From an uncultured Gemmatimonadaceae bacterium (lineage in GTDB: Bacteria; Latescibacterota; UBA2968; UBA8231): a DNA stretch of 64,000 nucleotides. Positions 358-26,696 of this stretch are shown here, in pieces (within the stretch, counting starts at the first letter, position 1; each line of letters starts with the position of its first letter). Both the position numbers and the translations under genes were made by a program. The stretch is taken from positions 545-64,544 of the forward strand of contig CAZEHQ010000003.1 of assembly GCA_964512165.1 (NCBI GenBank), in the 5' to 3' direction. The notes under the pieces are model-generated. The model was not told the DNA's origin. It worked only from the letters and a program-made list of their open reading frames with translations, and ran no database searches.

Positions 358-2268
358 ATGAGAGTCGCACGACTCGTCTTCGTCACCGGGGCCCTGGTAG
401 CGCTCACCGCCGGCATGGCGGTGGCCCAGGGAGCCATCGGCGGCGAGGACAACCAGATCACCGAGAGCCGCATGCCCACGGCGCTCACGGTCGAGGTGGC
501 GGACATGACCGTCAGCAGCTTCCCCGTGGACATCCCCTTCACCACCAGCGGCTCGGCGGCCACGGTCTACCTGGCCGTGTACACCAATCTCTCCGACGCC
601 GACCTGCCGGGGCTCACCACCGAGGGCGATCTGAACTGGCATTCCTACCAGGAGATCGACTACGCCCTCCACGTCTCCCCCGGCTCGCGCTTCGAGCCCG
701 GCTCCCACTCCATCGCCTGGGACGGCACCGACATGAACGGCAACGCCGTCGACCCGTCGGGCAGCTACCGGTTCTTCATCATCGCCCTCGACGATGAGGC
801 GCCGGTCAACATGGTGGGCTACACCAACGCCCGCCACACCTCCGAGTCCTGCCTGGCCCGCGACCAGAACGGCGACCTCTACATCCTCAGCGGCGGTTCC
901 GTGGTGCGGCTCACGGACGGCGGCCCCCGGCACCTGATCATCAGCAAGGTCGGAACCAACTGGCTGGAGACGCCGGGCGCCTGGCAGGCGATCGACGTGG
1001 AGGACATGGTGGCCTCGGTGCGCCATGAGGACGACATCGTGCCCGTCGAGTGGGCCGGCGGCGGCAACGGCAAGCAGTACGGCTCGCTGCCCGGCGACTT
1101 CTACGGCGATTCCTGGGACGGCACGATCTACGGGTCGATCAAGTTCAACGTCGATCCGGCCAACGGCCAGGTCACCCTCGACAACAACTTCGGCGACCAG
1201 GGCGACGGCCGCCTGAAGTTCGAGCCCTTCAGCGACGGCAACCTCATCGTCGGCTCCACGGGCATCGATTCCTGGGACGGTCTCATCTACTACCCGATCT
1301 ACGACCGGGGCCGCGAGACCGCTCCGCACTCGAACGTGGGGGTCCAGGACCCGACCACCGGCGAGGTCGTCGATGTCCTCGACCTGTCCGAGTGGAACGT
1401 GGTGCAGGTGGAGGATGCCGACGGCAACCCGACCCAGTCCGCCTTCAGCCCCCACGACATCTGGGTTGACGGCACCGGCGTCTACGTGGTCGGATACGCC
1501 GCCGCGCTGCACCTCAAGGTCACCCTCGACGGCGAGCTCAAGTGGATCAACAACAACGGCGACGGCTTCGCCGACAGCATCAACCCCGACACCGGCGAGT
1601 TCGACTACGGTTCCTTCGCCCTCACGCCCTGGAACACGTCGGGCTCGGGGAGCAAGGACGGCTGGGGCTTCGCCTACATCCCGCTGCTGGGCAGCACCAC
1701 CAGCACGGTGGACATCCTCGGCCCGGACGGCACGGGGATCCTGCACATGGTCGCCACCCACGCCCCCGCCCACTGGCCGCAGTGGGTCGAGTCGATCGAG
1801 GAGGACGGTCCCTACGACGGTCTCTACTGGGACATCGGCTCGCGGCGCGGCGGCGGCGCCGACCCCTGGGACCTGCCCGACTTCACCGGGTTCCCGGCGC
1901 GTCAGGCGATCCACTTCCCCTTCGACCTCAAGTCGGCCGTGATCAACAGCGACACGGCCGTCGAGGAGGTCGCGGGCGCCGGCAAGCCCGGTTCCTACAG
2001 CCTCGGGGACGCCTATCCCAACCCCTTCAACCCGGAGTCTACGATCCGCTTCAGCCTCCCCCGGGAGGAGCACGTGACCCTTCAGGTCTTCAGCCTGACG
2101 GGCCAGCTGGTCAAGACTCTGCACGAGGGCTACGTTGAGGCCGGCGTCTACGAGAGCGTCTGGGACGGCATGGACGAGGCCGGGGCGAGCGTGGCCAGCG
2201 GTGTCTACCTGTACAACCTGCAGGCCGGCTCCTTCCAGCAGACCAAGAAGCTGACCCTGCTCAAGTAG
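358..2268 (+). CDS. Secreted protein with a T9SS-type C-terminal sorting domain (Por_Secre_tail / FlgD-Ig-like)
   Basis: Lies in ORF 16..2268. The ATG at 358 gives the signal peptide MRVARLVFVTGALVALTAGMAVAQG. The C-terminus AYPNPFNPESTIRFSLP...GVYLYNLQAGSFQQTKKLTLLK fits the CTD pattern. The N-terminal region has the FlgD-Ig-like motif IAWDGTDMNGNAVDPSGSYRF. Confidence 0.75.
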   Translation: MRVARLVFVTGALVALTAGMAVAQGAIGGEDNQITESRMPTALTVEVADMTVSSFPVDIPFTTSGSAATVYLAVYTNLSDADLPGLTTEGDLNWHSYQEIDYALHVSPGSRFEPGSHSIAWDGTDMNGNAVDPSGSYRFFIIALDDEAPVNMVGYTNARHTSESCLARDQNGDLYILSGGSVVRLTDGGPRHLIISKVGTNWLETPGAWQAIDVEDMVASVRHEDDIVPVEWAGGGNGKQYGSLPGDFYGDSWDGTIYGSIKFNVDPANGQVTLDNNFGDQGDGRLKFEPFSDGNLIVGSTGIDSWDGLIYYPIYDRGRETAPHSNVGVQDPTTGEVVDVLDLSEWNVVQVEDADGNPTQSAFSPHDIWVDGTGVYVVGYAAALHLKVTLDGELKWINNNGDGFADSINPDTGEFDYGSFALTPWNTSGSGSKDGWGFAYIPLLGSTTSTVDILGPDGTGILHMVATHAPAHWPQWVESIEEDGPYDGLYWDIGSRRGGGADPWDLPDFTGFPARQAIHFPFDLKSAVINSDTAVEEVAGAGKPGSYSLGDAYPNPFNPESTIRFSLPREEHVTLQVFSLTGQLVKTLHEGYVEAGVYESVWDGMDEAGASVASGVYLYNLQAGSFQQTKKLTLLK

Positions 2269-2293
2269 CGGACAGCGGCAGTATCGGCAGATG

Positions 2294-2341
2294 GACAAGG
2301 TGGGCGATCTCTTCGAGGGTCGCTCACCTTGTCTGTTTTGT
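2294..2341 (+). terminator. Rho-independent terminator-like hairpin after the first gene
   Basis: GACAAGGTG (2294-2302) pairs with CACCTTGTC (2325-2333). It is followed by TGTTTTG and starts 26 nt after the stop at 2268. Confidence 0.5.
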
Positions 2342-2431
2342 GCCTCTCCTCCGGGCCGGTGACCGGGTGCGCGGCTGTCGGACCCGCTGGTTTGGCGCAG
2401 GCCCCTCCCGGAGCCAATCGCCGGCATCTCC

Positions 2432-4645
2432 ATGATCCGCGGGCCCGGGGGCCGACAGTGGTGGGATCCTCCGCCAGAAAAGGGAAGAAGGCTCTCATTG
2501 CGAACAGGACTTCCTTCGCTCTTGTCGGGTCTGCTGTTCCTCGGCGGCCTCGCGGGGCCGGCCGTGGCCGACGTGCTCCGCATCGGCCACTGGCAGCAGA
2601 CCACCTACTACCGCCACACCTTCCAGGCCGATGAAGCGAGGGACGCCCTGCTGCGGATCACCGCCGTGGGGGAGTACGTCGCCTGGCTCAACGGCGAGGA
2701 GGTCGCCGCCGACGGCGACTGGCGGACCGCCGAGGCGGTCCCCATCTCCGCGCAGCAGGGCGACAACCACATCGCCGTGGCGGTGACCAACGTCCCCGGG
2801 GAGGCCGGCGCCGGGCTCCTCCTCAGCCTCCAGGGCGGCCCCCTCGTCGCCCGCAGCACCTTCTCCGACGAGATCACCCCGTGGTACTGGACGGGGGAGA
2901 GCCAGGAGGGCACGGCCTGGACGACGGCCGACGTGCAGGGCGCGTGGAGCCGGGTCGGCGCCGGGTCTCTCGACAGGGTGGGGGTGAGCGAGGCGATCTT
3001 CCATCCGGAGGCGGAGGTGGTCGCCGGCTATCCGAGCGAGGTCAACGTCGCCAGTTCCCCGGGGGGCCGCATCGTCCTGGCCGATCAGCGCGGGCGCAAC
3101 ATCGCCCTCGGGACCAACGCCAGCGAGGTGGGCGTCACCGACGGGTCCCTGGGCCTTCCGGTGTGGTCCCTGCCCCAGGGGCTCGGAGCGCTGAACCGCG
3201 TCCTCAACATCGCCCTGCCGGGCCTGACCCGGATCAACCGGGTCCGGGTGATCACCAAGCCCCCGGAGGGCAACGAGACCTGGCAGGGCAACTCCCTCCT
3301 CGGGTACTCGGTGCAGGTCAGCGAGGACCAGTCCCGCTGGATCGAGATGGGGGGGGTCAACGACATCGACACCCCCGTCTACACCGAGGTCCGCTTCAAT
3401 CCGGTCCTGGCGCGCCACGTCCGGGTGCAGGTGACCCAGGCCGAGGTCGGCGCCGACCCCGCGAAAGTGGCGGAGATCCAGATCTACGGGGTCGACTTTG
3501 TTCCCGCCGGGGCCTACGTCTCGCCGCCGCTGGACCTGGGGGACCCGGAGGCGGTGAAGAACTACGGCCGCGCCCGCTGGTGGGGGGAGGTTCCCCCCGG
3601 GACGTCCCTCGGTCTGCAGTTCAGCACCGGCGACAGCCCCGACCCGGCCGACGGCAGCTGGAGCGCCTGGAGCGCGGAGTTCGCGGACTCGGGGGCCCTC
3701 ATCCCTTCTCCCGAGCCCCGCCGCTACCTGCGCTACCGCGTGAACCTGCGCACCGACGATCTCGAGTTCACCCCCGCCCTCGACAGCCTCGAGATCGACT
3801 ATGACGCGGCGGCCATCGCGGCGCGCAGCGCCACCGCTTCGGTCGTTCCCAACGAGGCTCCCATGGGGGAAGACGTGGACTTCCGCTTCAGCATCGGCAT
3901 AACCCTCGAAGAAGGGGATGCCCTGGAACGGGTCCGGGTCCGCCTTCCCAGCCTCCCCAGCGCCGTGAACTCGATCCAGCTGCTGGGGCAGGAAGTCGCC
4001 GTGCCGGAGTTCCCCACGAACCCGGAGGGCGTGGACGCGGGCGGCCGGACTCTGCGGGTGGTTCCCGCCGACGTGCGAGACGTGGACATCGCCTTCGATC
4101 CTCCCCTTACCTCCGCCGACGGCAGCGAGATCACCCTGGCCGTCTCGGCGCGGTGCGCCCTCTACACCGATACCCACGATTTCCGCGCCTTCCTCTTCAG
4201 TCCGGGCTCCGACAATCCCCTGAACGTGCTGGAAGAGACCGCCGACGGAGCCTCCTGGACCGTGGTGGTGAGCGATGTCGTGGCCGGAGACCTGCTCGAG
4301 GTCCGAGCGCAGCCATCGGCCTTCTCCCCCAATGGAGACGGCATCAACGACTTCACGATCATCGAGTTCGCCCTCACCAAGGTGACCGAGCCCCGCCGGG
4401 TGGACGTCGATCTGTACGACCTGGGGGGGCGCCGGGTCCGGAGGCTGGAGACGCCGCGCCTCATCGGCGGCCGGTACCTCCATCCCGGCCTGGGCGCCGC
4501 GGGGTCGGCGTTTTCTCCCGGGTTCTGGGACGGCAGGGACGATGCCGGCAACCTGGTGCCGCCGGGGATCTACCTGTTCTCGGTGCGGGCGAAGCTGGAC
4601 GACGGCGACGAGGCCGTCTCCGGAGTGGTGCATGTGGTCTACTGA
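2432..4645 (+). CDS. Secreted protein with a discoidin (F5/8 type C)-like domain and an FSPNGDG-type FlgD-Ig / CTD C-terminus
   Basis: Signal-like LSGLLFLGGLAGPAVADV. An alternative TTG start at 2498 is preceded by AGGGAAGAAGG. Discoidin-like segment: RINRVRVITKP...ARHVRVQVTQ...VAEIQIYG. C-terminus: SAFSPNGDGINDFTIIEF...FWDGRDDAGNLVPPGIYLFSV. Confidence 0.75.
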   Translation: MIRGPGGRQWWDPPPEKGRRLSLRTGLPSLLSGLLFLGGLAGPAVADVLRIGHWQQTTYYRHTFQADEARDALLRITAVGEYVAWLNGEEVAADGDWRTAEAVPISAQQGDNHIAVAVTNVPGEAGAGLLLSLQGGPLVARSTFSDEITPWYWTGESQEGTAWTTADVQGAWSRVGAGSLDRVGVSEAIFHPEAEVVAGYPSEVNVASSPGGRIVLADQRGRNIALGTNASEVGVTDGSLGLPVWSLPQGLGALNRVLNIALPGLTRINRVRVITKPPEGNETWQGNSLLGYSVQVSEDQSRWIEMGGVNDIDTPVYTEVRFNPVLARHVRVQVTQAEVGADPAKVAEIQIYGVDFVPAGAYVSPPLDLGDPEAVKNYGRARWWGEVPPGTSLGLQFSTGDSPDPADGSWSAWSAEFADSGALIPSPEPRRYLRYRVNLRTDDLEFTPALDSLEIDYDAAAIAARSATASVVPNEAPMGEDVDFRFSIGITLEEGDALERVRVRLPSLPSAVNSIQLLGQEVAVPEFPTNPEGVDAGGRTLRVVPADVRDVDIAFDPPLTSADGSEITLAVSARCALYTDTHDFRAFLFSPGSDNPLNVLEETADGASWTVVVSDVVAGDLLEVRAQPSAFSPNGDGINDFTIIEFALTKVTEPRRVDVDLYDLGGRRVRRLETPRLIGGRYLHPGLGAAGSAFSPGFWDGRDDAGNLVPPGIYLFSVRAKLDDGDEAVSGVVHVVY

Positions 4646-4675
4646 GAGGTCCTCCCGGGGAGGCGCCGAGGGGCC

Positions 4676-7381
4676 GTGAAGGTCAGAGTCCTCACACGAT
4701 CCGCTCTCGCGGCACTGGCGGCGCCCCTGCTGCTGTGGTCGTCCGCCGAGGCCCAGATGCTCTCGCGCGACGACTATCCTCTGTGGCAGAAGGAGGACTA
4801 CGAGAATATCGGCCGCTTCGGCTACCGCGACTTCGACGAGCGCGACGTGGAGCGGCGGGTCTACGACCCCTTCGGCGTCTACCTCATCGACGGCGTTCCG
4901 GTCTTCGCCCTCGAGGAAACCCGCACCCGGGGGCCCGAGCGCGGCAGCGGCATCTTCAAGAGCCCGCTCTATCCGAGCATCTTCCGCAACCTGATGATCG
5001 GCATGGACTCCTACCGGGGCTGGGCGGCGTCGGTCATGGTGGGCGACGCCGTGCCCACGCGGTTCTCCTCCCTCACCCTGAACCTGAGCCGCCTCAACGG
5101 CATCCGCTTCGACGCCTCCTCCCGCAAGTCGAGCTTCAGCATCGTGGGGTCGCGCATATCCGACCCGGTGCTGCTGGCCACGGGCCTGACCCAGAGCGGC
5201 GTGCAGGTCAACCCCGAGGGCGTCTTCGGAAGGCCGACCTTCGGCAGCTACCTCATCGGCGGCCACTGGGAGACGACCCTGGGCAACGTCCTCACCCTCG
5301 GATCGACGTACGTCAACGTCCACAACTTCGACAGCGTCGCCGGCCGCGACGAGGGCTCCCTGAAGGGGGTCGTCCCGTTCTCCGGCCTGGATGAGGCGAG
5401 GTCGGTCTTCGTCATCGTGAGCGACGACTCCCACTGGGACGGCGACGGCCCCAAGATCTTCCGCATGGAGATGTACGTCGACGGCGAGCTGAGGGACGAC
5501 ATCGAGCCCATGATCCGCATGCTGCCCTCGGTGCCCGTTCTCGTGGGGGAGGCGAACCGCGAGATCGGCCTCGGAACGAGCGAGATCAACCTGCGGCGGG
5601 CGGACCGGCCTTCGTGGCTGATCGAGAGCTACCGGATGGAGGAGATCGTCCGCGAGGGCTACGACCCGCGGGGCCGGCTCAGCAACTTCACCAGCGGCGG
5701 ACTGTTCTTCAAGGGAGGCGTGCCCGTTGAGCATGAGGGGGTCCCCTTCCTGCGGGCCGAGGGCACCGACGTCCTCGTGTACCGGTTCGAGGTGCCCCCG
5801 GGGACGAGGGAGGTCCGCTTCCGGGCCCTCGCCGCCGGGGACTACGTGATCGACGTGGCCAGCGCCCTCGGCTGGGTCGGGACGGACGTGCAGTGGCGCG
5901 ACTGGCACACGGTGAAGCGCGCCGCCAACAACGTCCGCGACGACGGCAACATGGGGTGGGTCACCTTCCGCTACGGCTTTCCCACCGGCATGGCCCTCTT
6001 CGGCATGGACTTCGAGGCCAGCTTACTCGGCTTCCGGGCCTGGGGGGAGTTCGCCCGCAACCGGTCGTACTTCAAGTTTCCCTCCGGCCGGGGGGAGCGC
6101 CTGTCCACCACCGAGGACGCCTGGTTCATCAACCTCCACCGGGACATGGGCGCCTGGGACCTGGGCTTCGAGTACATGAACATGCCCTCGACCTTCGCCA
6201 CGAGCTTCCCGGCCCTCATGCAGAATCCGCGGCAGAACGTGGTGGCCCCCTTCGAGCTGGTGGACGACAACGACGACCGCGACGAGTGGCCCGACCGCTG
6301 GGAGCAGCAGCGCGACTTCGCCTCCCTCAACCTCACGCCGGCTCCGGGGGCGGGACTGGGCTTCGGCGTCTTCCCCGGCCTCGACGTCGACAACGACGGC
6401 AGGCGGGACAACGTCTGGTACCGCGGCGGCGACCGGATCCTGACCTACTACGACCAGCCCTTCGTCTTCGGCGACGACTTCAACAACAACGGGCTGGTGG
6501 ACGGGTGGGAGAACGACAACCGGGCGGACTACCCCTACGACCAGGACCGCAGGGGAGGGCACGCCTTCCTCACCTGGAGGCCGTTCTCCGACCGGAAGAG
6601 CGTGTGGATGCGCCTCGGCGGTTACGACGTGCGCCAGCCCGACGGCGGCGGCCGGGACCGGGCCACCTACCTGAAAGCCAACTACCTGCGGCGCTGGGAG
6701 GGGCTCGGGCGGGTGCAGCTGAGCTACTACGGCAAGAGGGTCCGGGACGACGTGCCCAACGACCTCTATGTCCTCAGCGCCAGCTACAGCGTCATGCCCG
6801 ACCGGCTGCTGCTGCGCAACAGCCTGGTGAACACCGTCCTGGCGGGTGCCCACCTGAATACCGACGCCTTGCCGGATCTCAACATCTACAACGACATCCG
6901 GCTGTCGGTGAACGACCAGCGGGAGCTGGCGGATGAGCACTGCCAGCAGCCCGAGGCCCGGGTGACGAGCGTGGGCTACGTGGCCCGGGCCGACTACACC
7001 TGGCACCTCGGACCGAGCCTGAGCTTCGGCCCCATGTTCAAGGCCACCGTCAACCGCACCCTGGCGCGCCTGCCCAGCCTACGGAACCACACCTATACCC
7101 TGACACCCCTCTTCCGGGGCGACTACCGGCTCGCGTCGAAGACCGTGCTCAGAGGGGGGCTTCTGGGCCTGCCCTTCCGGGCGCGCTCCCGGAACCTGCT
7201 GTGGCCGTTCCTCGACAACGACTCCTGGTACTACATCCTGCTGCTGGAGAACCTCGGCAACTACCGCGGCATCGACGTGAGCACCAGCATCGGCTTCCAG
7301 AAGAACTTCATCCGTTACGTCTCCTCGCACCGGGTCCCCTCCGGGTCCGAGCGCTACTTCATCCGGCTGCGGATCGGTTAG
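4676..7381 (+). CDS. Giant outer-membrane-type protein, paralog 1 of 3 (Asp-rich calcium-binding-like loops)
   Basis: GTG start. Signal peptide MKVRVLTRSALAALAAPLLLWSSAEAQ. Shares blocks with the next two genes: FSSLTLNLSRLNGIRFD, GPKIFRMEMYVDGELR, VDDNDDRDEWPDRW, VFPGLDVDNDGRRDN, DDFNNNGLVDGWENDNRADYPYDQD. Confidence 0.75.
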   Translation: MKVRVLTRSALAALAAPLLLWSSAEAQMLSRDDYPLWQKEDYENIGRFGYRDFDERDVERRVYDPFGVYLIDGVPVFALEETRTRGPERGSGIFKSPLYPSIFRNLMIGMDSYRGWAASVMVGDAVPTRFSSLTLNLSRLNGIRFDASSRKSSFSIVGSRISDPVLLATGLTQSGVQVNPEGVFGRPTFGSYLIGGHWETTLGNVLTLGSTYVNVHNFDSVAGRDEGSLKGVVPFSGLDEARSVFVIVSDDSHWDGDGPKIFRMEMYVDGELRDDIEPMIRMLPSVPVLVGEANREIGLGTSEINLRRADRPSWLIESYRMEEIVREGYDPRGRLSNFTSGGLFFKGGVPVEHEGVPFLRAEGTDVLVYRFEVPPGTREVRFRALAAGDYVIDVASALGWVGTDVQWRDWHTVKRAANNVRDDGNMGWVTFRYGFPTGMALFGMDFEASLLGFRAWGEFARNRSYFKFPSGRGERLSTTEDAWFINLHRDMGAWDLGFEYMNMPSTFATSFPALMQNPRQNVVAPFELVDDNDDRDEWPDRWEQQRDFASLNLTPAPGAGLGFGVFPGLDVDNDGRRDNVWYRGGDRILTYYDQPFVFGDDFNNNGLVDGWENDNRADYPYDQDRRGGHAFLTWRPFSDRKSVWMRLGGYDVRQPDGGGRDRATYLKANYLRRWEGLGRVQLSYYGKRVRDDVPNDLYVLSASYSVMPDRLLLRNSLVNTVLAGAHLNTDALPDLNIYNDIRLSVNDQRELADEHCQQPEARVTSVGYVARADYTWHLGPSLSFGPMFKATVNRTLARLPSLRNHTYTLTPLFRGDYRLASKTVLRGGLLGLPFRARSRNLLWPFLDNDSWYYILLLENLGNYRGIDVSTSIGFQKNFIRYVSSHRVPSGSERYFIRLRIG

Positions 7382-7387
7382 GCGGCC

Positions 7388-16815: not shown

Positions 16816-16818
16816 GGC

Positions 16819-17229: not shown

Positions 17230-17233
17230 TTCC

Positions 17234-18577: not shown

Positions 18578-19821
18578 AGCGCGTCCTCTGGCTCAAGTGG
18601 GGCGGCGCGGCCGTGGTGGCCGCCGGCCTCGGAGGGGGTCTGTACTACCACTTCGGCGTCGCCGAGCCCCGGCGGAACCGCGCCGAGGCCCAGGCCCTCT
18701 TCGAGGAGGGCAACGCCCGCCTGCACGAGGGGGAGACGGCCGCCGCCATCGAGGTCTACCAGCAGGCCTTGGACCGCGATCCCGCCTTCGTGCCCGCCTA
18801 CAACGGCCTGGGCATGGCCTACCGGGCCTCGGGAGACTCCCCGCGGGCCGAGGCGCTCCTGCAGCAGGCCCTGTCCATCGATTCCACCGTGGCGGAGACC
18901 TACAACAACCTGGCCATCGTCTACTCCGAGAGCGGCCGTGTGGCGCAGGCGGAGGCGGTCTACAGGAAAACCCTCGCCATCGACCCGAACTCCGCCGTGA
19001 CCTACTTCAACCTGGGCGCCTTCTACTCCCAGGTCGGGCGCTACGCCGACGCCTTGGAGGAGTACGGCAGGGCGTTGCAGCTGCGGCGCGGCCTCTACCA
19101 GGCGCACAACAACATGGCCCTGGCCAGCATCGCCCTCGGCCGGTCCTCGCAGGCGGTGCGGGAGCTGAAGCGCTCGATCGAGGTCAACCCCCGCCAGGGC
19201 CGGGCCTGGTACAACCTCGGCCTGGTCCACGAGGAGGAGGGCCGCTACGAGGAGGCGGCCGGCTGCTTCCGCACGGCCCTGGAGCACGAGCCCGGGGTGG
19301 CCGCCATCCACTACCACCTCGGCGTCGTCTACGAGGGGCTGCAGCGCGAGACCGAGGCCATGGAGAAGTACCGGGAGGCGATCTCCATCAAGCCGTCCCA
19401 CAGGGAGGCCCACTACCGCATGGGCCGGCTGCTGGCGGCGCGGGGCCGGCACGAAGAGGCGGAAGCCGGGTTGAGGAAGGCGATCGAGATCGATCCGGAG
19501 TACGCCGACGCCCGCTACAACCTGGGCCGTCTCTACATGAGGCAGGGCCGGACCGCCGAGGCGCAGCGGCAGATGGAGCTGTTCCGCCAGATGAGCGAGT
19601 ACGCCAAGGAGAGGGAGAACGTCAGCCGCATCCTGCGATACATGCCCGGCGACGCCAACTCCCGCTGGAAGCTGGGCCAGGTGCACGAGAAGCACGGTAA
19701 GCACGGCCGCGCCATCGAGGAGTACCGGAAGGCCCTGGCCATCCGTCCCGGCTTCGAGGAAGCCCGGCAGGCCCTCGAGTCGCTGCTCGAGGCGCGTTCC
19801 CGGGAGGAGGACCGCAGATGA
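18574..19821 (+). CDS. Membrane-anchored TPR repeat protein (415 aa)
   Basis: ATGA overlap with the upstream gene. TM segment WGGAAVVAAGLGGGLYY. About 10 consecutive TPR-like units, for example AIEVYQQALDRDPAFVPAYNGLGMAY and AEAVYRKTLAIDPNSAVTYFNLGAFY. Confidence 0.85.
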   Translation: MKRVLWLKWGGAAVVAAGLGGGLYYHFGVAEPRRNRAEAQALFEEGNARLHEGETAAAIEVYQQALDRDPAFVPAYNGLGMAYRASGDSPRAEALLQQALSIDSTVAETYNNLAIVYSESGRVAQAEAVYRKTLAIDPNSAVTYFNLGAFYSQVGRYADALEEYGRALQLRRGLYQAHNNMALASIALGRSSQAVRELKRSIEVNPRQGRAWYNLGLVHEEEGRYEEAAGCFRTALEHEPGVAAIHYHLGVVYEGLQRETEAMEKYREAISIKPSHREAHYRMGRLLAARGRHEEAEAGLRKAIEIDPEYADARYNLGRLYMRQGRTAEAQRQMELFRQMSEYAKERENVSRILRYMPGDANSRWKLGQVHEKHGKHGRAIEEYRKALAIRPGFEEARQALESLLEARSREEDRR

Positions 19822-22800
19822 GCTTGATCGGACTGTCGATCGTCGGCGTCACCCTGGGCATCTCCCTCCTCGCCCGGGACGTGCCCACCGAGGACTACAT
19901 GCTCTCCACCTTCCAGGCGGGACAGAGCTTCTACTCCGAGGGCGCCTACGACCAGGCGATAGAGAAGTACAGCGACGTGGGCGGCGTCCGCAGCCTCCTC
20001 CTCGACGACGCCGCCATCGTCGTCGTCGTGGGCGACGTGGAGACCACGGTCAAGGACGCGGCCATCTACCAGGTGGGCAACTCCTACTTCAAGATGTTCG
20101 AGGAGGAGTTCCAGGCCGCCGAGGCCGCGGGCCATGAGCGCCAGCGGCAGCAGCGCCTCGAGAGGGCCAACGAGTACCTGGAGGAGGCGGTGAGCCACTT
20201 CTCCCGGGTCGAGAAGCGGTCCGGCTCCGAGGAGCTGCGCGTCCTCGCCATGAGCCGGATCATGACGAGCTGGTACACCGCCCGGCGCTACCAGGACGTG
20301 ATCCGCGTGGGCCGCGAGTTCGTCGACAGGTATCCCGACAGCGCCTACCTCGTGGAGGCCCTCTACAACATCGGCTGGTCCTGGTACGAGCTCGGCGACT
20401 ACGGCCGCAGCATCGAGGCCTTCACCGGGCTGACGGAGCGCTTCGAGTCCGGCTTCCACGTGAGCCGGGCCCTGTTCCAGATCGGGGAGTGCTGGTACGA
20501 CCAGGGCCGCTACGCCGAGGCGATCCCCTGGTACCAGCGGCTGGTGGACCGCGCCGACATCCTCGAGCTGACCGAGCAGGAGATCCAGCGGATGCAGTTC
20601 GAGAAGGTCGCCGGCCTCGTGGACGAGACCGAGTACGAGCTGACCGCCAAGGCCCAGATCCGCATCGGCGACAGCTACAGCCGGCTGGGGGAGTTCGAGC
20701 AGGCCGAGGAGTCGTACCGCGTGGTGATCTCGGTCTTCGCCCAGGAGCGGCGCCTCGTGGAGCGCGCCTACCAGAGCCTGGCGGACATGCACTTCGAGAA
20801 CCGCCGCCTGGAGCGCTGCGTCGCCGCCTACCGCGAGGCCATCGACAACATCCCGAACCGCATCTTCAAAGCGCGCATGCAGTTCCAGCTGGCCAAGCGC
20901 TACGCGGAGGCGAGCCGGGAGTGGGGCGAGGACCTCTTCGACGACGCCGTCCGCGAGTACAACGTCTACCTGAAGGGCTACGCCGAGGTGGCGCAGCAGG
21001 CCGGGTTCACCCCGGCCAACGCCTGGTTCGAGATCGGCCAGGCCCGCTACGCCGAGGCCGAGGGCCTCGCCCAGGCCGGAGAGGAGAGCCGTGAGGCCTA
21101 CGGCCGGGCCCTGCATGCCTACGACACCATCCTGGAAGAACATCCCGACCCCGCATTCCTCACCGCCGCCCGCTTCAACGCCGCCCTGTGCCGGCAGCGG
21201 ATGGGCGGCGAGGCGGAACTCGCCGAGGCGGTGGCGGCCTTCCGCGGCATCATCGACGAGGACCCCGCCGGCACCTGGGCCCGCAGCTCGCGGTTCCAGC
21301 TGGCGCGCATGTACTTCGGCCGCCAGGAGTTCGACCGCTCCGCCGGCGTCTACGCCGAGATCATCGCCGAGGCCCGCGACTCCACCCACCTCGACATCGC
21401 CCGCTTCGAGCTGGGCCTCGTCCTGCAGAAGGGGGGCGACCTGGAGGGCGCCGTGGAGGAGTTCCTCGCCGTGCGCCCCTCGGCGCCGCAGTTCTCCCTC
21501 TCCCGCCTGGAGGCCGGCCGCGCCTGCGTGAGCCTCGAGAGCTACGACCGCGCCCTGGAGGTGCTCTCCGCGGGCATGGAGGCCGCCGGGGACGACGGCG
21601 AGCGCGCCCAGTACCACTACCTGACGGGCAAGGCCCGGGCCGGCCGGCAGGAGTACGGGCCCGCCGTGGAGGCCTTCACGCGGACCATCGCCCTCACCGC
21701 CGACCCGGCCCTGGTGGAGATCGCCCGCTACGACCGGGGGACGGGCTACTCCCGCCTCGAGCGCTACGCCGAGGCCGAGAAGGACCTGCGGGTGCTGGTC
21801 GATTCGGGCAACGAGCGCATCCGCGGCCCGGCGCAGAAGATGCTCGGACTGGCCTACCTGCGCCTCGACCGCCAGCAGGAGGCCCTGGCCAGCTACGGCC
21901 GGCTCGCCGAGACCGCCGCCGACGCCGGCGAGCGGGCCGAGTACATGGTGCTCATGCTCGAGCTGTTCTTCGAGCTGGAGCAGTACGACATGGCCATCGC
22001 CACGGGCCGGCAGATCCTGGACCAGGAGTTCGAGGACAGCCTCGAGCACAAGGACTACTGGATCGACGAGCTGGTGTACTACCTCATCGGCGAGAGCCAG
22101 TACCGCAGCGGCCAGGCCGGCGCCGCCATGGCCACCTACGCCGAGGGCCTGCGGCGTTTCCCCGCCTCCTACTACTCGCCCGACATGGCCTACGGCCTCG
22201 GCACCCTCTACTTCGAGAGCGACCGCCTCGACGACGCCACCGGCACCCTGGCCGACTTCGTGAAGCGCTTCCCGCGCTCCCCCAACGCCCTGTACGGCCA
22301 ATACTACCTCGGGTACGCCCACTTCAACCTCAGGGAGTGGGACCAGTCCCTGGAGGCCTTCCAGGGCCTCGTGGACAGGTTCCCCGACGCCGAGGTGGCC
22401 GCCGAGGCGCTCATGCGCTCCGCCGAGAGCGCCTTCAACCTGGGCCGCTTCGACGAGGTGGCCGCCCTCTACGGGCGGCTTCTGGAGAGCCATCCCGAGT
22501 CGCCCTTCAGCGACGACGCCATGTACAACCTCGCCTGGGCCCACTACGAGTCCAAGGACGAGGATGCCTTCATCGCCGGCCTGGAGCGGCTCCTGGGCGC
22601 CTTCCCGCGGAGCGAGTTCGCCCCCGACGCCCGGTTCACCCTCGGCGACTACTACTTCAACAAGGAGGAGTACGAGAAGGCCCAGGCCGAGTACCAGATC
22701 GTGCTCTCCGAGTACGGCAGCTCCACCATCGCCCGCGAGGTCCCCGAGGTGTTGCACAAGGTCCGGGAGATCATCGCCTACGGCGAGTACGAGCAGGCCA

Positions 22801-23099
22801 TGGCGGTCTTCAGCGAGGGCCTGAGCCTCGAAAAGGAGGCGCAGCGGGACGAGGCGGTGCGGAAGTTCGAGGAGGCCGCCCCCCTCTTCGTGGCCCTCAT
22901 GGAGAAGTACCCCGGCACCGAGGTCGAGGTCGGCGCCCTGAGCAACCTCGGCATCTGCTACGAGTTCCTGCGCCGGTGGCAGGAGGCGGTGCAGACCTAC
23001 GACAAGGTCATCGCCCTCTACGAGCAGGAGAAGGCGAGCCAGGAGGCGTTCCAGTTCGCCAAGGGCCACCGCGACTGGATCGTCACCTCCCGGCTCTGA
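19818..23099 (+). CDS. Large TPR / YbgF(CpoB)-like repeat protein (1093 aa)
   Basis: ATGA overlap with the upstream gene. N-terminal hydrophobic segment MSLIGLSIVGVTLGISLLA. Many YbgF-type TPR units, for example YPDSAYLVEALYNIGWSWYELGDYGRSIEAF and FPRSPNALYGQYYLGYAHFNLREWDQSLEAF. Confidence 0.85.
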   Translation: MSLIGLSIVGVTLGISLLARDVPTEDYMLSTFQAGQSFYSEGAYDQAIEKYSDVGGVRSLLLDDAAIVVVVGDVETTVKDAAIYQVGNSYFKMFEEEFQAAEAAGHERQRQQRLERANEYLEEAVSHFSRVEKRSGSEELRVLAMSRIMTSWYTARRYQDVIRVGREFVDRYPDSAYLVEALYNIGWSWYELGDYGRSIEAFTGLTERFESGFHVSRALFQIGECWYDQGRYAEAIPWYQRLVDRADILELTEQEIQRMQFEKVAGLVDETEYELTAKAQIRIGDSYSRLGEFEQAEESYRVVISVFAQERRLVERAYQSLADMHFENRRLERCVAAYREAIDNIPNRIFKARMQFQLAKRYAEASREWGEDLFDDAVREYNVYLKGYAEVAQQAGFTPANAWFEIGQARYAEAEGLAQAGEESREAYGRALHAYDTILEEHPDPAFLTAARFNAALCRQRMGGEAELAEAVAAFRGIIDEDPAGTWARSSRFQLARMYFGRQEFDRSAGVYAEIIAEARDSTHLDIARFELGLVLQKGGDLEGAVEEFLAVRPSAPQFSLSRLEAGRACVSLESYDRALEVLSAGMEAAGDDGERAQYHYLTGKARAGRQEYGPAVEAFTRTIALTADPALVEIARYDRGTGYSRLERYAEAEKDLRVLVDSGNERIRGPAQKMLGLAYLRLDRQQEALASYGRLAETAADAGERAEYMVLMLELFFELEQYDMAIATGRQILDQEFEDSLEHKDYWIDELVYYLIGESQYRSGQAGAAMATYAEGLRRFPASYYSPDMAYGLGTLYFESDRLDDATGTLADFVKRFPRSPNALYGQYYLGYAHFNLREWDQSLEAFQGLVDRFPDAEVAAEALMRSAESAFNLGRFDEVAALYGRLLESHPESPFSDDAMYNLAWAHYESKDEDAFIAGLERLLGAFPRSEFAPDARFTLGDYYFNKEEYEKAQAEYQIVLSEYGSSTIAREVPEVLHKVREIIAYGEYEQAMAVFSEGLSLEKEAQRDEAVRKFEEAAPLFVALMEKYPGTEVEVGALSNLGICYEFLRRWQEAVQTYDKVIALYEQEKASQEAFQFAKGHRDWIVTSRL

Positions 23100-23122
23100 C
23101 GAAGCAAGGAAAGGGTGAGGAA

Positions 23123-23911
23123 ATGAGCTCCCGGCGAAAGTCGATCTGTCGGATCCTGGTGTGCTGCGCCCCCCTGGCCGCGGCGGGGTGCATCATCTTC
23201 CCGCCCAAGATCCACTACAACTCCTACATGGTCCCCGCCACCCAGGCCGGCGAGGTCTACCGCACCGAGGAGGACGGCTCCATCTCCTACGTCATGGAGG
23301 GGCTCCGCCTCAACGTGCGCTTCCTCACCGACGCCGAGCTGAACGCCCTGCTGCCGGAGGATTCCGTCAAGGGGAAGTACTCCACGAATCCCTACACCTA
23401 CGGCGACCACGTGGACGGCGACGTGGGCTACGTCCCCGACCGCTTCACCACCTTCCGGGTCAGCGTCTTCAACCAGACCTTCGCCAAGGTGCAGCTCAAC
23501 CCCATCGAGGTCGTCCTGCTCACCGACCAGGGCGAGGAGCTGAACTCCTACGGCATTCCCTCCACCTCGCCCTTCAACAGCTTCGAGCGCTACTACCGGG
23601 GCCTGAGGGGGCAGAGCGGCAACGAGTTCTACCGCTTCGAGGTGCGCATGGGGCACGTGCGCAGCCTCAACTACGCCGAGAGCCAGCCGATCTTCAAGGG
23701 CGAGAACTACAGCGGCCTCATCGCCTTCGACGCCCTCGACCGGGACGTGCGCCGCGTGCGCCTCGTGCTCAAGGAGTTCACCCTCAAGTTCGACGAGTTC
23801 GGCGTGCCCCTCGAGACGATCGACTGCCGTTTCGACTTCCGCCGCCGGATCGAGCTCTGGGAGGTGGAAGAGGAAGAGACGCTGGTGAGCGACGGCGGCC
23901 GCCAGCCCTAG
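23123..23911 (+). CDS. Lipoprotein, function unknown
   Basis: AAGGAAAGGGTGAGG lies upstream of the ATG at 23123. Lipobox: RILVCCAPLAAAGC. No named domain recognised. Confidence 0.6.
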   Translation: MSSRRKSICRILVCCAPLAAAGCIIFPPKIHYNSYMVPATQAGEVYRTEEDGSISYVMEGLRLNVRFLTDAELNALLPEDSVKGKYSTNPYTYGDHVDGDVGYVPDRFTTFRVSVFNQTFAKVQLNPIEVVLLTDQGEELNSYGIPSTSPFNSFERYYRGLRGQSGNEFYRFEVRMGHVRSLNYAESQPIFKGENYSGLIAFDALDRDVRRVRLVLKEFTLKFDEFGVPLETIDCRFDFRRRIELWEVEEEETLVSDGGRQP

Positions 23912-23919
23912 CCGCGTCC

Positions 23920-24861
23920 GTGCCCGCCCCGGGGAGTCCCCGCCGGCCGCCCGTCCGGTGGCCCGTCCGACTGCTGCTCTCCGCCCTGATCCTGTCCCCG
24001 GTGGGCTCACCGGCCGCCCAGCCGGGGGAGCGGGTCCTGGTGGTATCCTTCGAAGACCAGAGCGACTTCCGCGGCACCTGGGACCTCCGGCAGGGGGTGC
24101 CCCGGCTGCTGGCCGAGCTGCTGCACGGCAGCGGCGTCTTCGAGGTCCTCCCCTTCGACAGCCTGGCCGTCCTTCCCGCCGGGGCCGGAGAAACCGATGC
24201 CAGGCGACTGGAGCGACAGCTGCAGGCCGGCCGCGAGGCCGGCGCCGACCTGGTCCTCGGCGGCCGGATCCGCCGCTTCGCCATCAAGCGCTTCAACGTC
24301 GGCAGCCCCCTCGTGGGCGGGTTCACCTCCTATTCCGTGCTCGTCGAGGTCGACGCCCGCCTGACGCGGGTCCTCACGGGGTCCCGCGACGGGGAGGAGG
24401 CCAGCGGCCGGGCGGAGGTGAAGGACCAGGACCTGGGCCTGACCCTGCTGGGCCGGACCACCGAGACCGAGGCCGCCCTCGCCCGCCTCAACGAGGTCCC
24501 CTTCGGGGCGCCGGAGTTCCGCGAGACGATCGTCGGCGCCGCCACCCTCGACGCCCTCGGGCAGATCGCCGGGGAGCTGTCGGCCCAGGTCGTGGTCGCC
24601 GCGGTGGAGGGCAAGGTCCTCAGCCTCCAGAGCGGCGGCGGATTCGTGGACGTCGGCCTGGCCGACCGGGTCGAGGCCGGTCACCGGCTGGCCGTGCACT
24701 CCCGGCGGGACACGCAACGGGTGGGCACGGTGCAGATCGTCGAGGTTCTGGCGGCGCACCTGTCGAGATTCCGCGCCCTGGAGGGCGGGGGAGCCATCCG
24801 CGAGGGGGATCTCCTTCGGTCCCCGTCCCAGGGTGATCCCGGAAGGGGAGACCACCGATGA
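23920..24861 (+). CDS. CsgG / LpoB / FlgT-like periplasmic protein
   Basis: GTG at 23920, in frame with ORF 23161..24861. Signal-like VRWPVRLLLSALILSPVGSPAAQP. CsgG-type pattern: VLVVSFEDQSDFRG...GVPRLLAELLHGSGVFEVLPFDSL...GADLVLGGRIRRFAI. The start codon is uncertain. Confidence 0.5.
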   Translation: MPAPGSPRRPPVRWPVRLLLSALILSPVGSPAAQPGERVLVVSFEDQSDFRGTWDLRQGVPRLLAELLHGSGVFEVLPFDSLAVLPAGAGETDARRLERQLQAGREAGADLVLGGRIRRFAIKRFNVGSPLVGGFTSYSVLVEVDARLTRVLTGSRDGEEASGRAEVKDQDLGLTLLGRTTETEAALARLNEVPFGAPEFRETIVGAATLDALGQIAGELSAQVVVAAVEGKVLSLQSGGGFVDVGLADRVEAGHRLAVHSRRDTQRVGTVQIVEVLAAHLSRFRALEGGGAIREGDLLRSPSQGDPGRGDHR

Positions 24862-26696
24862 GCACCGATGCCCGCGACCTCGAGCCTGCCTGGGCGCATC
24901 GCACGGACGACGTCGACACCAAGGTCGGGATCCTGCGGCGAGCGCTGCGCGCGGGGAACCACGAACTGGCACTGGGCGTGGCCGACTCCATCAGGGACAC
25001 CGTCGCCAACGAGCGCATGATGCGGGCCGACCCGGGGCCCGCCGACCTGCCCGGCCACGGCTGGCAACGGACCGGGCGCCTGCCGGAGCCCTGGTCCCGG
25101 TGGGCCGACGGCTGGGAGCTGTGGCAGAGCGTGCGGCTCAGCGAGCCCATCGGCCAGGCGCGGCAAGCCGAGCCGCTCGACCTCCTCGTCGGCATGCCCG
25201 CGGAGCGGGTAGCGTCGCCGCAGCGCGAGCTGCGGGTAGCGCGCCTCGAGGACGGCCGGCCCTGCGAGGTCCGCAGCCAGGTCTACGGCGAGGTCCGCCG
25301 GGGGCCGCACTGGTTCGCCCACCTGGTCTTCGAGGCCTCTGTCCCCGCCACCGGCGCGGCGGTGTTCCTGGTCTTCTGCGGCAACCCCGCCGCCGAGCTG
25401 CCCGACTACCCGAGCCGCCTGAGCATCCGGGGCGAGGGCGTGGGCCTCGAGATCGAGACCCCCCACTATGTCGCCACCCTCTCCCGGCAGATGGGCCAGC
25501 TGGAGTCTCTGACGCCCAAGTGGCACCTGGGCGGGCTGCGCTTGTCCACCCACGGAGACGGCCACGGCGAGCCACCCAACCTCGACTGGGCCCACGACTA
25601 CACCACGGCCGGCGCCTTTCAGAAGATGCGGGTCACGAACTGGGCCGAGTGCCCCCACCACGAAGTGGTGCGCGGTCCCTTGTGCGCCATCGTGCGGCGC
25701 TTCGGCTTTCCCCACAGCCCGGTGCATCCCCTGTTCACCCCCAGCCGCCTGTTCATGGACCTGACCTACACCTTCTACGCCGGGGTCCCCTGGTTCCTGA
25801 AGGATGGCCGCATGGAGGCGGCGCGCGACTTCTGCGCCCACGTGGCCCGCGACGACGAGTGGTACTTCGGCGGCCGGCCCTTCGACGCCTCCCTGTGGAT
25901 GGACCGGGGAGGCCGCGTGCACGAGGGCCCGGTGCCGCCGGAGCAGATCGACCACGTCTGGGGCGCCGGCTTCTTCCATCGTCAGAGCCGGGACAGCATG
26001 TTCGTCATCTACCTGGACCACCATCTCGAGGGATCGCCCGGCGCCGGACCGGAGGCGACGACGCCGGCGAAGCTCCATCAGCACCTCGACATCACCCTCG
26101 ACCATGCCAGGCCGGGGCAGCCGCCGCACGCGTCGGTCTGGTGCCGTCCCATGCTGCGCGACAGCGCCTGGCTGCAGACCGGATCGTCCCTCGTGCAGCG
26201 CAACGCCTACCTGCTGGCGCCCTATCCCCGGCAGGGCGGCGCCGCGGGGCTGGAAGCGCTTCGCCAGCGCCTGCTGTCGCCGCTGGTGGCCGAAGCCGGT
26301 GGGACCCCGCCGGCGGCTCCGGCCGGCGCGTCCTCCGAGGCCGGCCAACCCCTGGCCCGGGTCGGCGAGCGCCCCTCGGACCGGCCCCGGAAACGCGCCC
26401 TCTGGGAGGCCATGGGGGAGGTTCGCGAGGACCAGCTCGGCAGCGTCGACGCCAGCCTGGTCGACATGGGCTACATCTACGACGTGCGCACCCGCGGCGC
26501 CGACGTTCGCGTGGTGATGACGATGCCCCACCGGGGGCGGCCGAAGTACGACTTTCTCGCCAAACCGCTGCGGGCGCGGCTGGAACAGCTGCCGGGCGTC
26601 GGCTCGGTGGTTGTCGAGCTCACCTGGGAGCCGGCCTGGACACCCAACCGCCTCACGGATGTGGGCCGCAGGCTGATGGGTCTGGCCGACGGCTGA
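24858..26696 (+). CDS. Cytoplasmic protein: ~500 aa unknown N-terminal region fused to a C-terminal DUF59 (MIP18/SufT-like) domain
   Basis: ATGA overlap with the upstream gene. No signal peptide. C-terminus matches the DUF59 pattern: ALWEAMGEVREDQLGSVDASLVDMGYIYDVRTRGADVRVVMTMPHRGRPKYDFLAKPLRARLEQLPGVGSVVVELTWEPAWTPNRL. Confidence 0.7.
   Translation: MSTDARDLEPAWAHRTDDVDTKVGILRRALRAGNHELALGVADSIRDTVANERMMRADPGPADLPGHGWQRTGRLPEPWSRWADGWELWQSVRLSEPIGQARQAEPLDLLVGMPAERVASPQRELRVARLEDGRPCEVRSQVYGEVRRGPHWFAHLVFEASVPATGAAVFLVFCGNPAAELPDYPSRLSIRGEGVGLEIETPHYVATLSRQMGQLESLTPKWHLGGLRLSTHGDGHGEPPNLDWAHDYTTAGAFQKMRVTNWAECPHHEVVRGPLCAIVRRFGFPHSPVHPLFTPSRLFMDLTYTFYAGVPWFLKDGRMEAARDFCAHVARDDEWYFGGRPFDASLWMDRGGRVHEGPVPPEQIDHVWGAGFFHRQSRDSMFVIYLDHHLEGSPGAGPEATTPAKLHQHLDITLDHARPGQPPHASVWCRPMLRDSAWLQTGSSLVQRNAYLLAPYPRQGGAAGLEALRQRLLSPLVAEAGGTPPAAPAGASSEAGQPLARVGERPSDRPRKRALWEAMGEVREDQLGSVDASLVDMGYIYDVRTRGADVRVVMTMPHRGRPKYDFLAKPLRARLEQLPGVGSVVVELTWEPAWTPNRLTDVGRRLMGLADG

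Follow-up and report, generated by a model that had tools for sequence, protein, structure and literature searches.

Our findings suggest that a block of 17 genes in an uncultured bacterium codes for a trans-envelope machine driven by the proton motive force (pmf), operating on the Tol/Ton/Agl-Glt principle with new partners and exerting its mechanical output on surface proteins or glycan. We put the probability of this reading at about one half. The block occupies positions 358-26696 of a 64,000-nucleotide (nt) stretch of contig CAZEHQ010000003.1 (assembly GCA_964512165.1, an uncultured Gemmatimonadaceae bacterium placed by GTDB in the Latescibacterota), which we refer to as the window; its genes are numbered g1 to g17 (Table 1). 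An earlier annotation made without database searches, hereafter the sequence-only reading, had proposed that the stator encoded here is wired to unnamed periplasmic and outer-membrane partners. That proposal is supported: the partners belong to no known family, the core of the locus is conserved, and the motor adjoins this core in five arrangements, in one locus (L085) at the very end of the operon. For the output that it had tentatively offered, export, anchoring or movement of the proteins with C-terminal sorting domains, energised import is as good a candidate. Shown here are the gene content, the conserved core, the recurring linkage of the motor, the TonB-like topology of g8, the fold of the barrels and the TonB-C-type domain that g15 bears in sister loci. 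Function, all physical contacts and the kind of output we infer, by way of sequence, structural prediction and comparison of loci.

ExbBD/TolQR-family motors power nutrient import, envelope stabilisation and gliding, and DUF4159, found on one protein of the block, is a widespread orphan domain. A 2025 survey argued that more trans-envelope systems powered by such motors await discovery (PMC12204202). The locus analysed here provides a fairly complete parts list for one: a motor, a candidate transducer shaped like TonB, giant tetratricopeptide repeat (TPR) scaffolds, a new barrel family and surface glycan-binding proteins. The system appears to be undescribed, as literature searches on its domain-of-unknown-function (DUF) names and on Latescibacteria gave nothing relevant, and no functional study was found in the literature on DUF4159, DUF4340 and DUF5683.

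A conserved core in related genomes

We scanned one genome per GTDB species and obtained 180 matching stretches, from which 79 distinct loci in 52 genomes were kept. The 17 window proteins were then compared by tblastn with all fetched loci, of which the 55 that reach at least 20 kb are treated as full length. The gene set recurs throughout, and conservation of gene order, which the sequence-only reading had named as a check, thus shows that the arrangement is not due to chance. The recurring core consists of g1 and g2, the giant barrels (g3-g5), the ~1090-amino-acid (aa) TPR protein g14, the DUF4159 protein g8 and the lipoprotein g15, often accompanied by g6, g7 and g16. Among full-length loci g2 is present in 55 of 55, often duplicated, g8 in 49, g1 (at 28-37% identity) in 48 and g6 in 25. 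Precomputed Pfam labels on five contigs give the same picture of conservation.

The core neighbourhood persists even where protein identity has fallen to 33-40%. Barrels of distant loci are 26-42% identical to those of the window and the g14 homologs 31-42% identical; in the majority of the distant loci the large TPR gene directly follows the barrels, and there is no motor between the DUF4159 and TPR genes. The unit therefore does not extend over all 26 kb. The motor is not an obligatory neighbour (~29% of loci), and g12 and g13, clade-specific accessories, are limited to the loci most closely related to the window (L005-L019). No homolog of g17 was found by tblastn in any of the 79 related loci, and this gene is thus not part of the conserved system, despite a 4-nt overlap of its start with the g16 stop that looks like translational coupling.

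The label Candidatus Latescibacterota is attached to nearly all loci, and Gemmatimonadetes or Handelsmanbacteria to a few; we regard the barrel family as confined to Latescibacterota MAGs. The locus nearest to the window's, L006, has a g4 that is 92% identical to that of the window and lies on chromosome 2 of a Latescibacterota metagenome-assembled genome (MAG). Between two and four of the kept loci were counted in each of at least 17 genomes; the system is multi-copy per genome. Several MAGs carry isolate names (COS4, IRC4, SB0661 and PNGco, for L009, L015, L019, L047, L049 and others) that we take to suggest a marine-sponge origin; if so, the system may bear on attachment, movement or feeding on glycan matrices.

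The motor and its probable coupling to the core

The motor consists of one ExbB/TolQ homolog (g9) and two ExbD/TolR homologs (g10 and g11), as originally proposed and as supported by the Pfam scores in Table 1. The best NCBIfam matches are TolQ for g9 (86 bits against an equivalog cutoff of 221) and TolR for g10 and g11 (66 and 58 bits against a cutoff of 127); the exbB and exbD equivalog cutoffs were missed by all three proteins. Since g10 and g11 are only 38% identical and both keep the transmembrane aspartate of 'IDCVF' ('LIDCVF' in g10), they fit a heteromeric axle like that of AglQ/AglS (PMC11761067).

The core is adjoined, in five different arrangements, by an ExbB-ExbD-ExbD set with 45-99% identity to g9-g11 (tblastn). 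In the window, L005, L006, L007, L009, L010 and L017 the motor is found between g8 and g12. It lies upstream in the same orientation in L033, L035, L037 and L041, and upstream but divergent in L034, L053 and L060. In L061, L062, L063, L068, L070, L074, L078, L082 and L083, plus L085 and L087, it directly follows g16, and in L072 and L081 it is placed between g6 and g8. We extended one locus with the motor after g16, as L085, and found the order barrels, TPR, DUF5683-like, small protein, DUF4159, g15, g16, ExbB, ExbD, ExbD, followed by a convergent gene. No TonB, TolA, TolB or Pal comes after the second ExbD of L085; the operon ends with the motor, which excludes a reading as the housekeeping Tol-Pal system. 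L087 shares this order up to the second ExbD, and L086 has g16 followed by unrelated genes. We also looked for a canonical TonB or TolA beside the motor in other lineages and rejected this candidate, as the second ExbD is followed by a 184-aa lipoprotein in L037, by the convergent gene in L085 and by a 547-aa SurA/PpiC-type rotamase in L087 (14724-16367). Further downstream in L087 are an FG-GAP/ASPIC-TPR protein and another protein with F5/8 and C-terminal sorting domains.

The presence of the motor also follows the form of g15. This lipoprotein comes in a short form (~255-262 aa) followed by g16, as in the window, and a long form (~400-415 aa). A motor is adjacent in 9 of the 9 informative loci with short g15 and g16 (with L087 also positive and L086 negative), versus 3 of 21 loci with long g15. 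This split between motor with short g15 and g16 on the one hand, and fused g15 with no motor on the other, provides a testable prediction on how the paralogous modules relate to the motor. A notion of one motor per genome, suggested by a first count, was withdrawn, since several loci end exactly where the motor would lie. In addition, L087 suggests that the genome that holds L006 may have a second motor-bearing locus, with the motor after g16. Taken by itself, the coupling of motor to core seems to us likely, and more secure than the reading as a whole.

A family of giant outer-membrane barrels

The three large proteins g3-g5 had been described as paralogs, and they are: g3 and g4 are 30% identical over their full length (E 7e-93), and g5 and g3 are 32% identical (E 6e-56). 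None of them has a Pfam or NCBIfam match, so that the known families listed in the sequence-only reading (TonB-dependent receptors, SprA, LptD, BamA/TamA) find no support in hidden Markov model (HMM) searches. An AlphaFold2 model of g4, built from a 27-sequence alignment (mean pLDDT, a per-residue confidence, 68; predicted TM-score 0.64), shows a very large beta-barrel with ~28-30 long strands and a beta-sandwich inserted at residues ~240-420. An Asp-rich segment at ~515-640, modelled with low confidence, holds the strongly conserved motifs VDDNDDKD and GVFPGLDxDxDGRPD, which by eye look like calcium-binding thrombospondin-type repeats. Residues 17-61 (positions 7388-7570) are also of low confidence in the model, yet Y40 and Y48 are invariant; the N-terminal consensus of the barrels reads 'LLYRPGExYxNYARExYRxY', with matching regions in g3 and g5. 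This segment could be a docking site resembling a TonB box. The g4 model contains no plug domain, and no Plug or TonB_dep_Rec match was found in the barrels (Pfam/NCBIfam).

Foldseek against the PDB returned only generic giant barrels for g4 (Deinococcus SlpA, MtrB, LptD and SprA, TM-scores 0.13-0.25), with Deinococcus SlpA as the top match (~0.19), and a barrel profile run against PDB sequences gave nothing relevant. SlpA_C appeared below threshold in 2 of 10 remote members of the barrel family. A known-family identity was rejected, as Pfam, NCBIfam, the PDB profile search and Foldseek yield only 'large outer-membrane barrel'. When 1.84 billion representative proteins were searched exhaustively with a profile, 843 clusters of the barrel family were obtained at E<=1e-3, of which 276 remained at E<=1e-30, and a narrower profile-based homolog search gave only 28 proteins, which do not include the g3 and g5 ortholog groups. 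The 843 clusters point to a real, moderately large and unnamed family. From sequence and model, g3-g5 thus represent very large outer-membrane beta-barrels that form a family of their own, hitherto undescribed. The number of barrels is not strictly three, as L035 (10001-15646) codes for four, the g4-type gene being tandemly duplicated. In a five-member cluster of loci including L024, L072 (8472-10000), L075 and L081, a ~320-aa outer-membrane barrel comes after the F5/8 protein and before the first of the giant barrels; its similarity to PorV/FadL is weak (23.3 bits against a cutoff of 27).

A candidate transducer and the scaffold proteins

The AlphaFold2 model of g8, built from 35 homologs, consists of a transmembrane helix (residues 19-50), preceded by a cytoplasmic RFxxPSD motif, a low-confidence basic linker of ~100 residues that contains prolines (59-162) and an alpha/beta globular domain (172-416). 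The globular head is flavodoxin-like or GATase1-like, and its sole close structural relative in Foldseek is 4i66, an uncharacterised DUF4159 structure (TM-score 0.79, normalised to the target) that g8 also matches by sequence. The g8 protein is among the best conserved of the locus, with 41-57% identity in distant loci, and its gene adjoins the motor genes in L072 as well as in the window. A transmembrane helix, a disordered linker and a globular head make up the topology of TonB and TolA, and we infer that g8 is a candidate force transducer.

The DUF5683 protein g6 is followed in many loci by g7, which the sequence-only reading had called an FN3-like lipoprotein: the lipobox is there, but the fn3 match is weak (19 bits, below cutoff). 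The large scaffold g14 matches TIGR02795 (tol_pal_ybgF) at 211 bits over 6 stretches and also YfiO/BamD. As for the TPR protein g13, its matches to GltE, Tgl and PilW are sub-threshold, and that to GltE (NF033758, 101 bits against a cutoff of 225) reflects generic TPR similarity. Searches against PDB sequences found nothing significant for g12, g15 and g16.

The lipoprotein g15, a possible adaptor, and g16

Orthologs of g15 are 45-58% identical. In the long form the additional C-terminal ~150 residues match NF033768, 'AgmX/PglI C-terminal domain', at 60 bits (cutoff 40); GltG (28-31 bits against a cutoff of 650), GltJ and tonB_Cterm are matched more weakly. By its NCBIfam name and by the weak GltG and GltJ matches, the extension would be the type of C-terminal domain found in the Myxococcus gliding proteins GltG and GltJ. 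With an HMM built from the BLAST-delimited tails of long g15, we found the extension in 33 loci, always fused to g15, and obtained no match in the window. The fused loci, which include L038 (3452-4663), L040, L043-L050, L052-L055, L059, L067 and L069, have no g16 and mostly no motor, and the domain sits on a lipoprotein, not on a transmembrane protein. The sequence-only reading, which recognised no TonB C-terminal domain in the block, is hence borne out there, but has to be qualified for the 33 related loci. Such a lipoprotein-borne TonB-C-type adaptor may give satellite loci that have no motor access to one encoded at another place of the same genome.

The CsgG/LpoB-like character that had been attributed to g16 is unproven: the window protein has no match, and its orthologs show only weak sub-threshold matches to CsgG (1 of 9), DUF3280 (3 of 9) and FlgT_C (2 of 9). 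We considered g16 as a divergent TonB-C-like domain and rejected this, as hhalign against the g15 extension gave a probability of 0.1%.

Surface proteins

Both g1 and g2 had been taken for secreted proteins with C-terminal sorting domains. This is correct for g1, which scores 61.5 bits with FlgD_ig and 27.7 bits against a cutoff of 27 with Por_Secre_tail (Pfam), as well as 38.3 bits against a cutoff of 23 with TIGR04183, the sorting domain of type A in type IX secretion systems (T9SS). The matches of g2 to such domains remain below threshold (FlgD_ig 21.3 and CHU_C 22.7, cutoff 27), and it carries an F5_F8_type_C domain (29.8 bits, Pfam). The N-terminal ~550 aa of g1 were assigned to no family, and nor were the N-terminal ~500 aa of g17.

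A proposed mechanism and its alternatives

We propose the following mechanism for the pmf-driven machine. A TolQ-like pentamer of g9 around a heterodimeric TolR-like axle of g10 and g11 would convert proton flow into movement in the inner membrane. This movement would pass to g8, with its transmembrane helix on the stator, its linker spanning the periplasm and its DUF4159 head docking on periplasmic partners. The scaffold beneath the outer membrane would be formed by g14, the lipoproteins g7 and g15, and g16, and the barrels g3-g5, of ~28-30 strands each, may assemble into a hetero-oligomeric outer-membrane platform that carries or handles the surface proteins g1 and g2. The output would most likely be mechanical work on g1 and g2 or on glycan bound to them, resulting in adhesion, surface transport or gliding, as in Agl-Glt/Agl-Nfs. 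A bolder version, which we offer tentatively and regard as plausible but short of probable, is that of a new, Latescibacterota-specific class of proton-driven machine, in which a DUF4159 transducer family, a platform of three paralogous barrels and the g15 adaptor move or power lectin-type surface proteins. It would be an independent counterpart, in the Fibrobacteres-Chlorobi-Bacteroidetes (FCB) group, of Myxococcus focal-adhesion gliding or spore-coat transport.

Several observations weigh against the proposed machine. A motor was found in only 23 of the 79 loci (~29%) within the fetched flanks, and in L011 its position between g8 and g12 is taken by a 498-aa Na+/solute symporter (18583-20079; SSF, E 8e-45). 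L012-L016 and L019 likewise have no motor between g8 and g12, and in L011 the DUF4340 and 415-aa TPR genes stay in place. The alignment of g8 shows no SHLS/His motif, by which TonB and TolA bind the stator, in its transmembrane helix, so that its assignment as a transducer is based on topology, context and degree of conservation. None of the Glt, Nfs or Agl equivalog cutoffs was reached, there is no GltD, GltC or GltG match in the window (NCBIfam), and cytoplasmic components of the GltI, MglA or FHA type are absent from the block. GltA and GltB are ~250-280 aa long, making the window barrels three to four times larger. The carbohydrate-utilisation genes of some loci point toward nutrient uptake. 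Lastly, the system is known from genes alone and its host phylum is uncultured.

The strongest competing explanation, rather unlikely in our estimate, is energised import of glycan, resembling polysaccharide utilisation. The barrels would then serve as a large channel, g1 and g2 would act like SusD/E/F, and the motor would open or drive the channel via g8 and g15, as TonB does for its dependent transporters. Genomes with several paralogous loci whose g1 and g2 have diverged (28-40% identity) speak for import, as does the discoidin-type carbohydrate-binding domain of g2. The same holds for the TonB-C-type domain on g15 of sister loci and for Y40 and Y48 of the barrel N-terminus, which could act like a TonB box. 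Carbohydrate genes in or beside the loci point the same way (oligogalacturonate-lyase-like, SSF symporter, sulfatase, CBM9, UxuA and FG-GAP/ASPIC), but these accessory genes are variable and missing from most loci. Import is further disfavoured by the plug-less barrel model with no TonB_dep_Rec or Plug match, and by the retention of three different barrels as a set. In addition, each locus has its own inner-membrane g8 and giant TPR scaffold, unlike TonB-dependent loci. Nfs reportedly carries its own GltD/E/G paralogs.

Carbohydrate-related genes are placed as follows. PD40/TolB-like beta-propeller proteins are embedded in L037 (15860-17179), L033, L035, L041 and L022 (3813-5059), and one PD40 type also scores 41 bits (cutoff 30) with oligogalacturonate lyase. 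In L033, L035, L037 and L041 such an oligogalacturonate-lyase-like/PD40 protein lies between g5 and the TPR gene. Sulfatase, CBM9, UxuA and FG-GAP/ASPIC genes are found in the flanks of some loci.

We consider it improbable that the block is a device for secretion or surface attachment of the adjacent proteins with C-terminal sorting domains, in which the barrels would translocate or anchor these proteins and export would draw its energy from the motor, as it does from GldLM in the T9SS. The match of g1 to the T9SS type-A model would fit such a device, as would the position of g1- and g2-type genes at the head of almost every locus and the SurA-like rotamase after the motor in L087. The PorV/FadL-like 320-aa barrel between g2 and g3 could be counted as well, but its match is below threshold. 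No GldK-N, SprA or PorU model was matched among the 17 proteins, and it is rare for a genome to hold three or four complete paralogs of a secretion system. Moreover, the window codes for a further protein with an FlgD_ig C-terminal domain and a DUF362 domain (Table 1) that no three-barrel locus adjoins, so the genome must provide, at another place, a general route by which such proteins are exported.

Less probable still is an envelope stabiliser or tether similar to Tol-Pal or SlpA, with the barrels as structural anchors, the CpoB-like TPR protein coordinating the envelope, and no cargo. The best matches of g9-g11 to TolQ/TolR and of g14 to CpoB/YbgF repeats are in line with it, and so are the PD40/TolB-like propellers of some loci, the top Foldseek rank of Deinococcus SlpA and the sub-threshold SlpA_C matches in two remote family members. 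However, the TM-score to SlpA is only ~0.19, and no Pal/OmpA-like, SLH or other peptidoglycan-binding domain was found in the 17 window proteins (Pfam/NCBIfam). Housekeeping tethers are also neither multi-copy nor coupled to diverging lectin-type surface proteins. Mere adjacency of an ordinary Ton/Tol motor to an unrelated outer-membrane cluster, with no functional coupling, might be read from the ~70% of loci that show no motor within 10 kb and from the symporter between g8 and g12 in L011, but is hardly credible given five independent arrangements in which one motor subfamily lies beside the core, the in-operon and terminal position of the motor in L085, its distribution over short-g15 and long-g15 loci (9/9 vs 3/21) and the lack of a TonB or TolA gene with the motor in L037, L085 and L087.

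Gene calls and surroundings of the block

As the window has a G+C content of ~70%, its reading frames were set by third-position GC phase together with open reading frame (ORF) analysis. This resulted in 17 tightly packed genes, all on the + strand. The sequence-only reading had counted 18, although its own list also adds up to 17. It was right about the packing: the start/stop overlaps at 10216, 14364, 18574, 19818 and 24858 are all real, and the remaining junctions measure 3-47 nt, except for the 163 nt between g1 and g2. The one + strand terminator-like hairpin of the block does lie in that gap, after g1; it is weak, and terminator-like sites in the block are no more numerous than the shuffled expectation. 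Nearly all of the earlier domain calls were upheld when the 17 proteins were searched against Pfam and NCBIfam, and the reported lack of TonB_C, plug, TolA/TolB/Pal and T9SS core matches was reproduced at E<=0.1.

Outside the block, glycan-related genes are abundant in the window, and the genes directly downstream form an envelope-stress pair. The two large membrane proteins of the window that carry DUF6785 plus DUF6784 (E 1e-115) are paralogous, and in the related locus L005 a third copy is found immediately upstream of g1.

Table 1 Features of the block and of the remainder of the window.
Feature	Position	Strand	Description
g1	358..2268	+	Secreted protein, 636 aa; C-terminal FlgD_ig / T9SS type-A sorting domain
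Terminator-like hairpin	2314..2331	+	Weak stem of 5 pairs, then T-rich tail; in the g1-g2 gap
g2	2432..4645	+	Secreted protein, 737 aa; F5/8 type C (discoidin, glycan-binding type) domain
g3	4676..7381	+	Giant predicted outer-membrane beta-barrel, paralog 1; 901 aa, signal peptide
g4	7388..10216	+	Giant predicted outer-membrane beta-barrel, paralog 2; 942 aa
g5	10216..13380	+	Giant predicted outer-membrane beta-barrel, paralog 3; 1054 aa; start overlaps g4 stop by 1 nt
g6	13428..13970	+	DUF5683 membrane protein, 180 aa; Pfam 28.7 bits
g7	13990..14367	+	Lipoprotein, 125 aa; lipobox in translation
g8	14364..15617	+	Inner-membrane-anchored DUF4159 protein; DUF4159 102 bits (Pfam)
g9	15649..16377	+	ExbB/TolQ-type stator subunit; MotA_ExbB 100.5 bits
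g10	16399..16815	+	ExbD/TolR-type subunit A; ExbD 93 bits
g11	16819..17229	+	ExbD/TolR-type subunit B, heterologous partner of g10; ExbD 104 bits
g12	17234..18577	+	Transmembrane-anchored DUF4340 protein; DUF4340 155 bits
g13	18574..19821	+	Transmembrane-anchored TPR protein, 415 aa; TPR families
g14	19818..23099	+	TPR scaffold, 1093 aa; N-terminal anchor, CpoB/YbgF-like and BamD-like repeats
g15	23123..23911	+	Lipoprotein, 262 aa, short form; no Pfam, NCBIfam or PDB match
g16	23920..24861	+	Secreted protein, 313 aa; no family, no match for the window protein
g17	24858..26696	+	612 aa; C-terminal FeS_assembly_P/DUF59, 33 bits
Downstream pair	27146-28414	+	YbjN/CesT-like protein, then PspA/IM30
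Glycan-related genes	36362-38125, 41717-42721, 48478-52580, 62441-63751		FG-GAP/ASPIC, UxuA-like, three amidohydrolase_2, sulfatase, BNR/sialidase-like
FlgD_ig protein	43796-46510	+	FlgD_ig C-terminal domain and DUF362 domain
DUF6785/DUF6784 protein	46501-48474	+	Large membrane protein
WD40 protein	52976-57550	-	1525 aa; many WD40 repeats, predicted to form several beta-propellers
DUF6785/DUF6784 protein	60237-62237	-	Large membrane protein

Comparison with known systems

The barrels are comparable in size to SlpA, LptD and MtrB, which were their top Foldseek matches (TM-scores only 0.17-0.25), but have no PDB profile match and no SLH or coiled-coil region, and the beta-sandwich insert and Asp-rich segment are particular to the window family. 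With the T9SS the block shares a pmf motor coupled, as we propose, to very large barrels, as well as cargo-like T9SS-type C-terminal domains and, in some loci, the weakly PorV-like barrel. It differs in having an ExbBD-type motor rather than GldLM, in showing no homology to GldK-N, SprA or PorU, and in the multi-copy nature of the loci. The likeness to Tol-Pal lies in the TolQ/TolR matches of g9-g11 and the CpoB/YbgF-type TPR units of g14; however, the equivalog cutoffs were missed, the window has no TolA, TolB or Pal, and the system is multi-copy and linked to surface proteins.

Of TonB with its dependent transporters, Tol-Pal, the T9SS and the vWA transducers, each has at least one defining feature that the block lacks. 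TonB/SusCD systems resemble ours in their ExbB/ExbD-family motor and in multi-copy outer-membrane modules paired with surface glycan-binding proteins, and also in the TonB-C-related domain of sister loci and the occasional embedded carbohydrate genes. They differ in that no homology to TonB, plug, TonB_dep_Rec or SusD was found here, in the three barrels per module and in the presence of inner-membrane and TPR components in each module. TonB-dependent transporters such as SusC are 22-strand barrels with an N-terminal plug and a TonB box, whereas the g4 model has ~28-30 strands, a beta-sandwich insert and no plug.

The layout of a transmembrane helix, linker and globular head defines TonB and TolA; in TonB the helix bears the SHLS/His motif, the spacer is Pro-rich and the head is TonB_C. 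The layout is shared, as a three-part arrangement, by the recently described vWA-headed force transducers (Williams-Jones et al. 2025, PMC12204202). Like the loci of these transducers, the window combines one TolQ-like gene with two heterologous TolR genes and a TPR gene, and codes for a transmembrane-anchored protein whose linker is disordered and whose alpha/beta globular head is not of the TonB type. The head of g8 is, however, DUF4159 (flavodoxin/GATase1/ThuA-like, as in 4i66) and not vWA, the SHLS/His motif is missing, and outer-membrane partners can be identified in the window's system.

The closest known analogue is the Agl-Glt/Agl-Nfs machinery of Myxococcus xanthus, a family to which the system itself does not belong. 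There are clear differences. The window barrels, at 900-1050 aa, form a new family. The transmembrane-anchored transducer candidate has a DUF4159 head instead of TonB_C, with the TonB-C-like domain found on a lipoprotein, and the surface proteins have T9SS-type sorting domains rather than lipidation. The host belongs to the Latescibacterota, and the block has no cytoplasmic GltI, MglA or FHA module. GltD, GltE, GltC and GltG form the 'core complex' of Luciano 2011 (PMC3169522), and the AgmX/PglI-type domain of GltG and GltJ is present here on g15 of sister loci, not on a transmembrane protein. The two also have features in common. Both have one TolQ-like and two distinct TolR-like motor proteins, as in g9 with g10 and g11. 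Two size classes of TPR protein are also common to both, with GltD (>1100 residues) and GltE (~455 residues; PMC11761067) corresponding in size to g14 (1093 aa) and g13 (415 aa). The Agl-Glt outer membrane contains three barrels (GltA/B/H), a lipoprotein and a surface adhesin (PMC11761067, PMC3169522), and the block likewise codes for three barrels, lipoproteins and two surface proteins, although with no homology to GltA/B/H/K or CglB (NCBIfam). Finally, M. xanthus has multiple Glt-like clusters (PMC3169522), and Nfs uses the Agl motor, as follows from the Agl-Nfs paper (PMC3858216). In the Latescibacterota, similarly, we find genomes with several of the paralogous clusters, and many of these clusters have no motor of their own.

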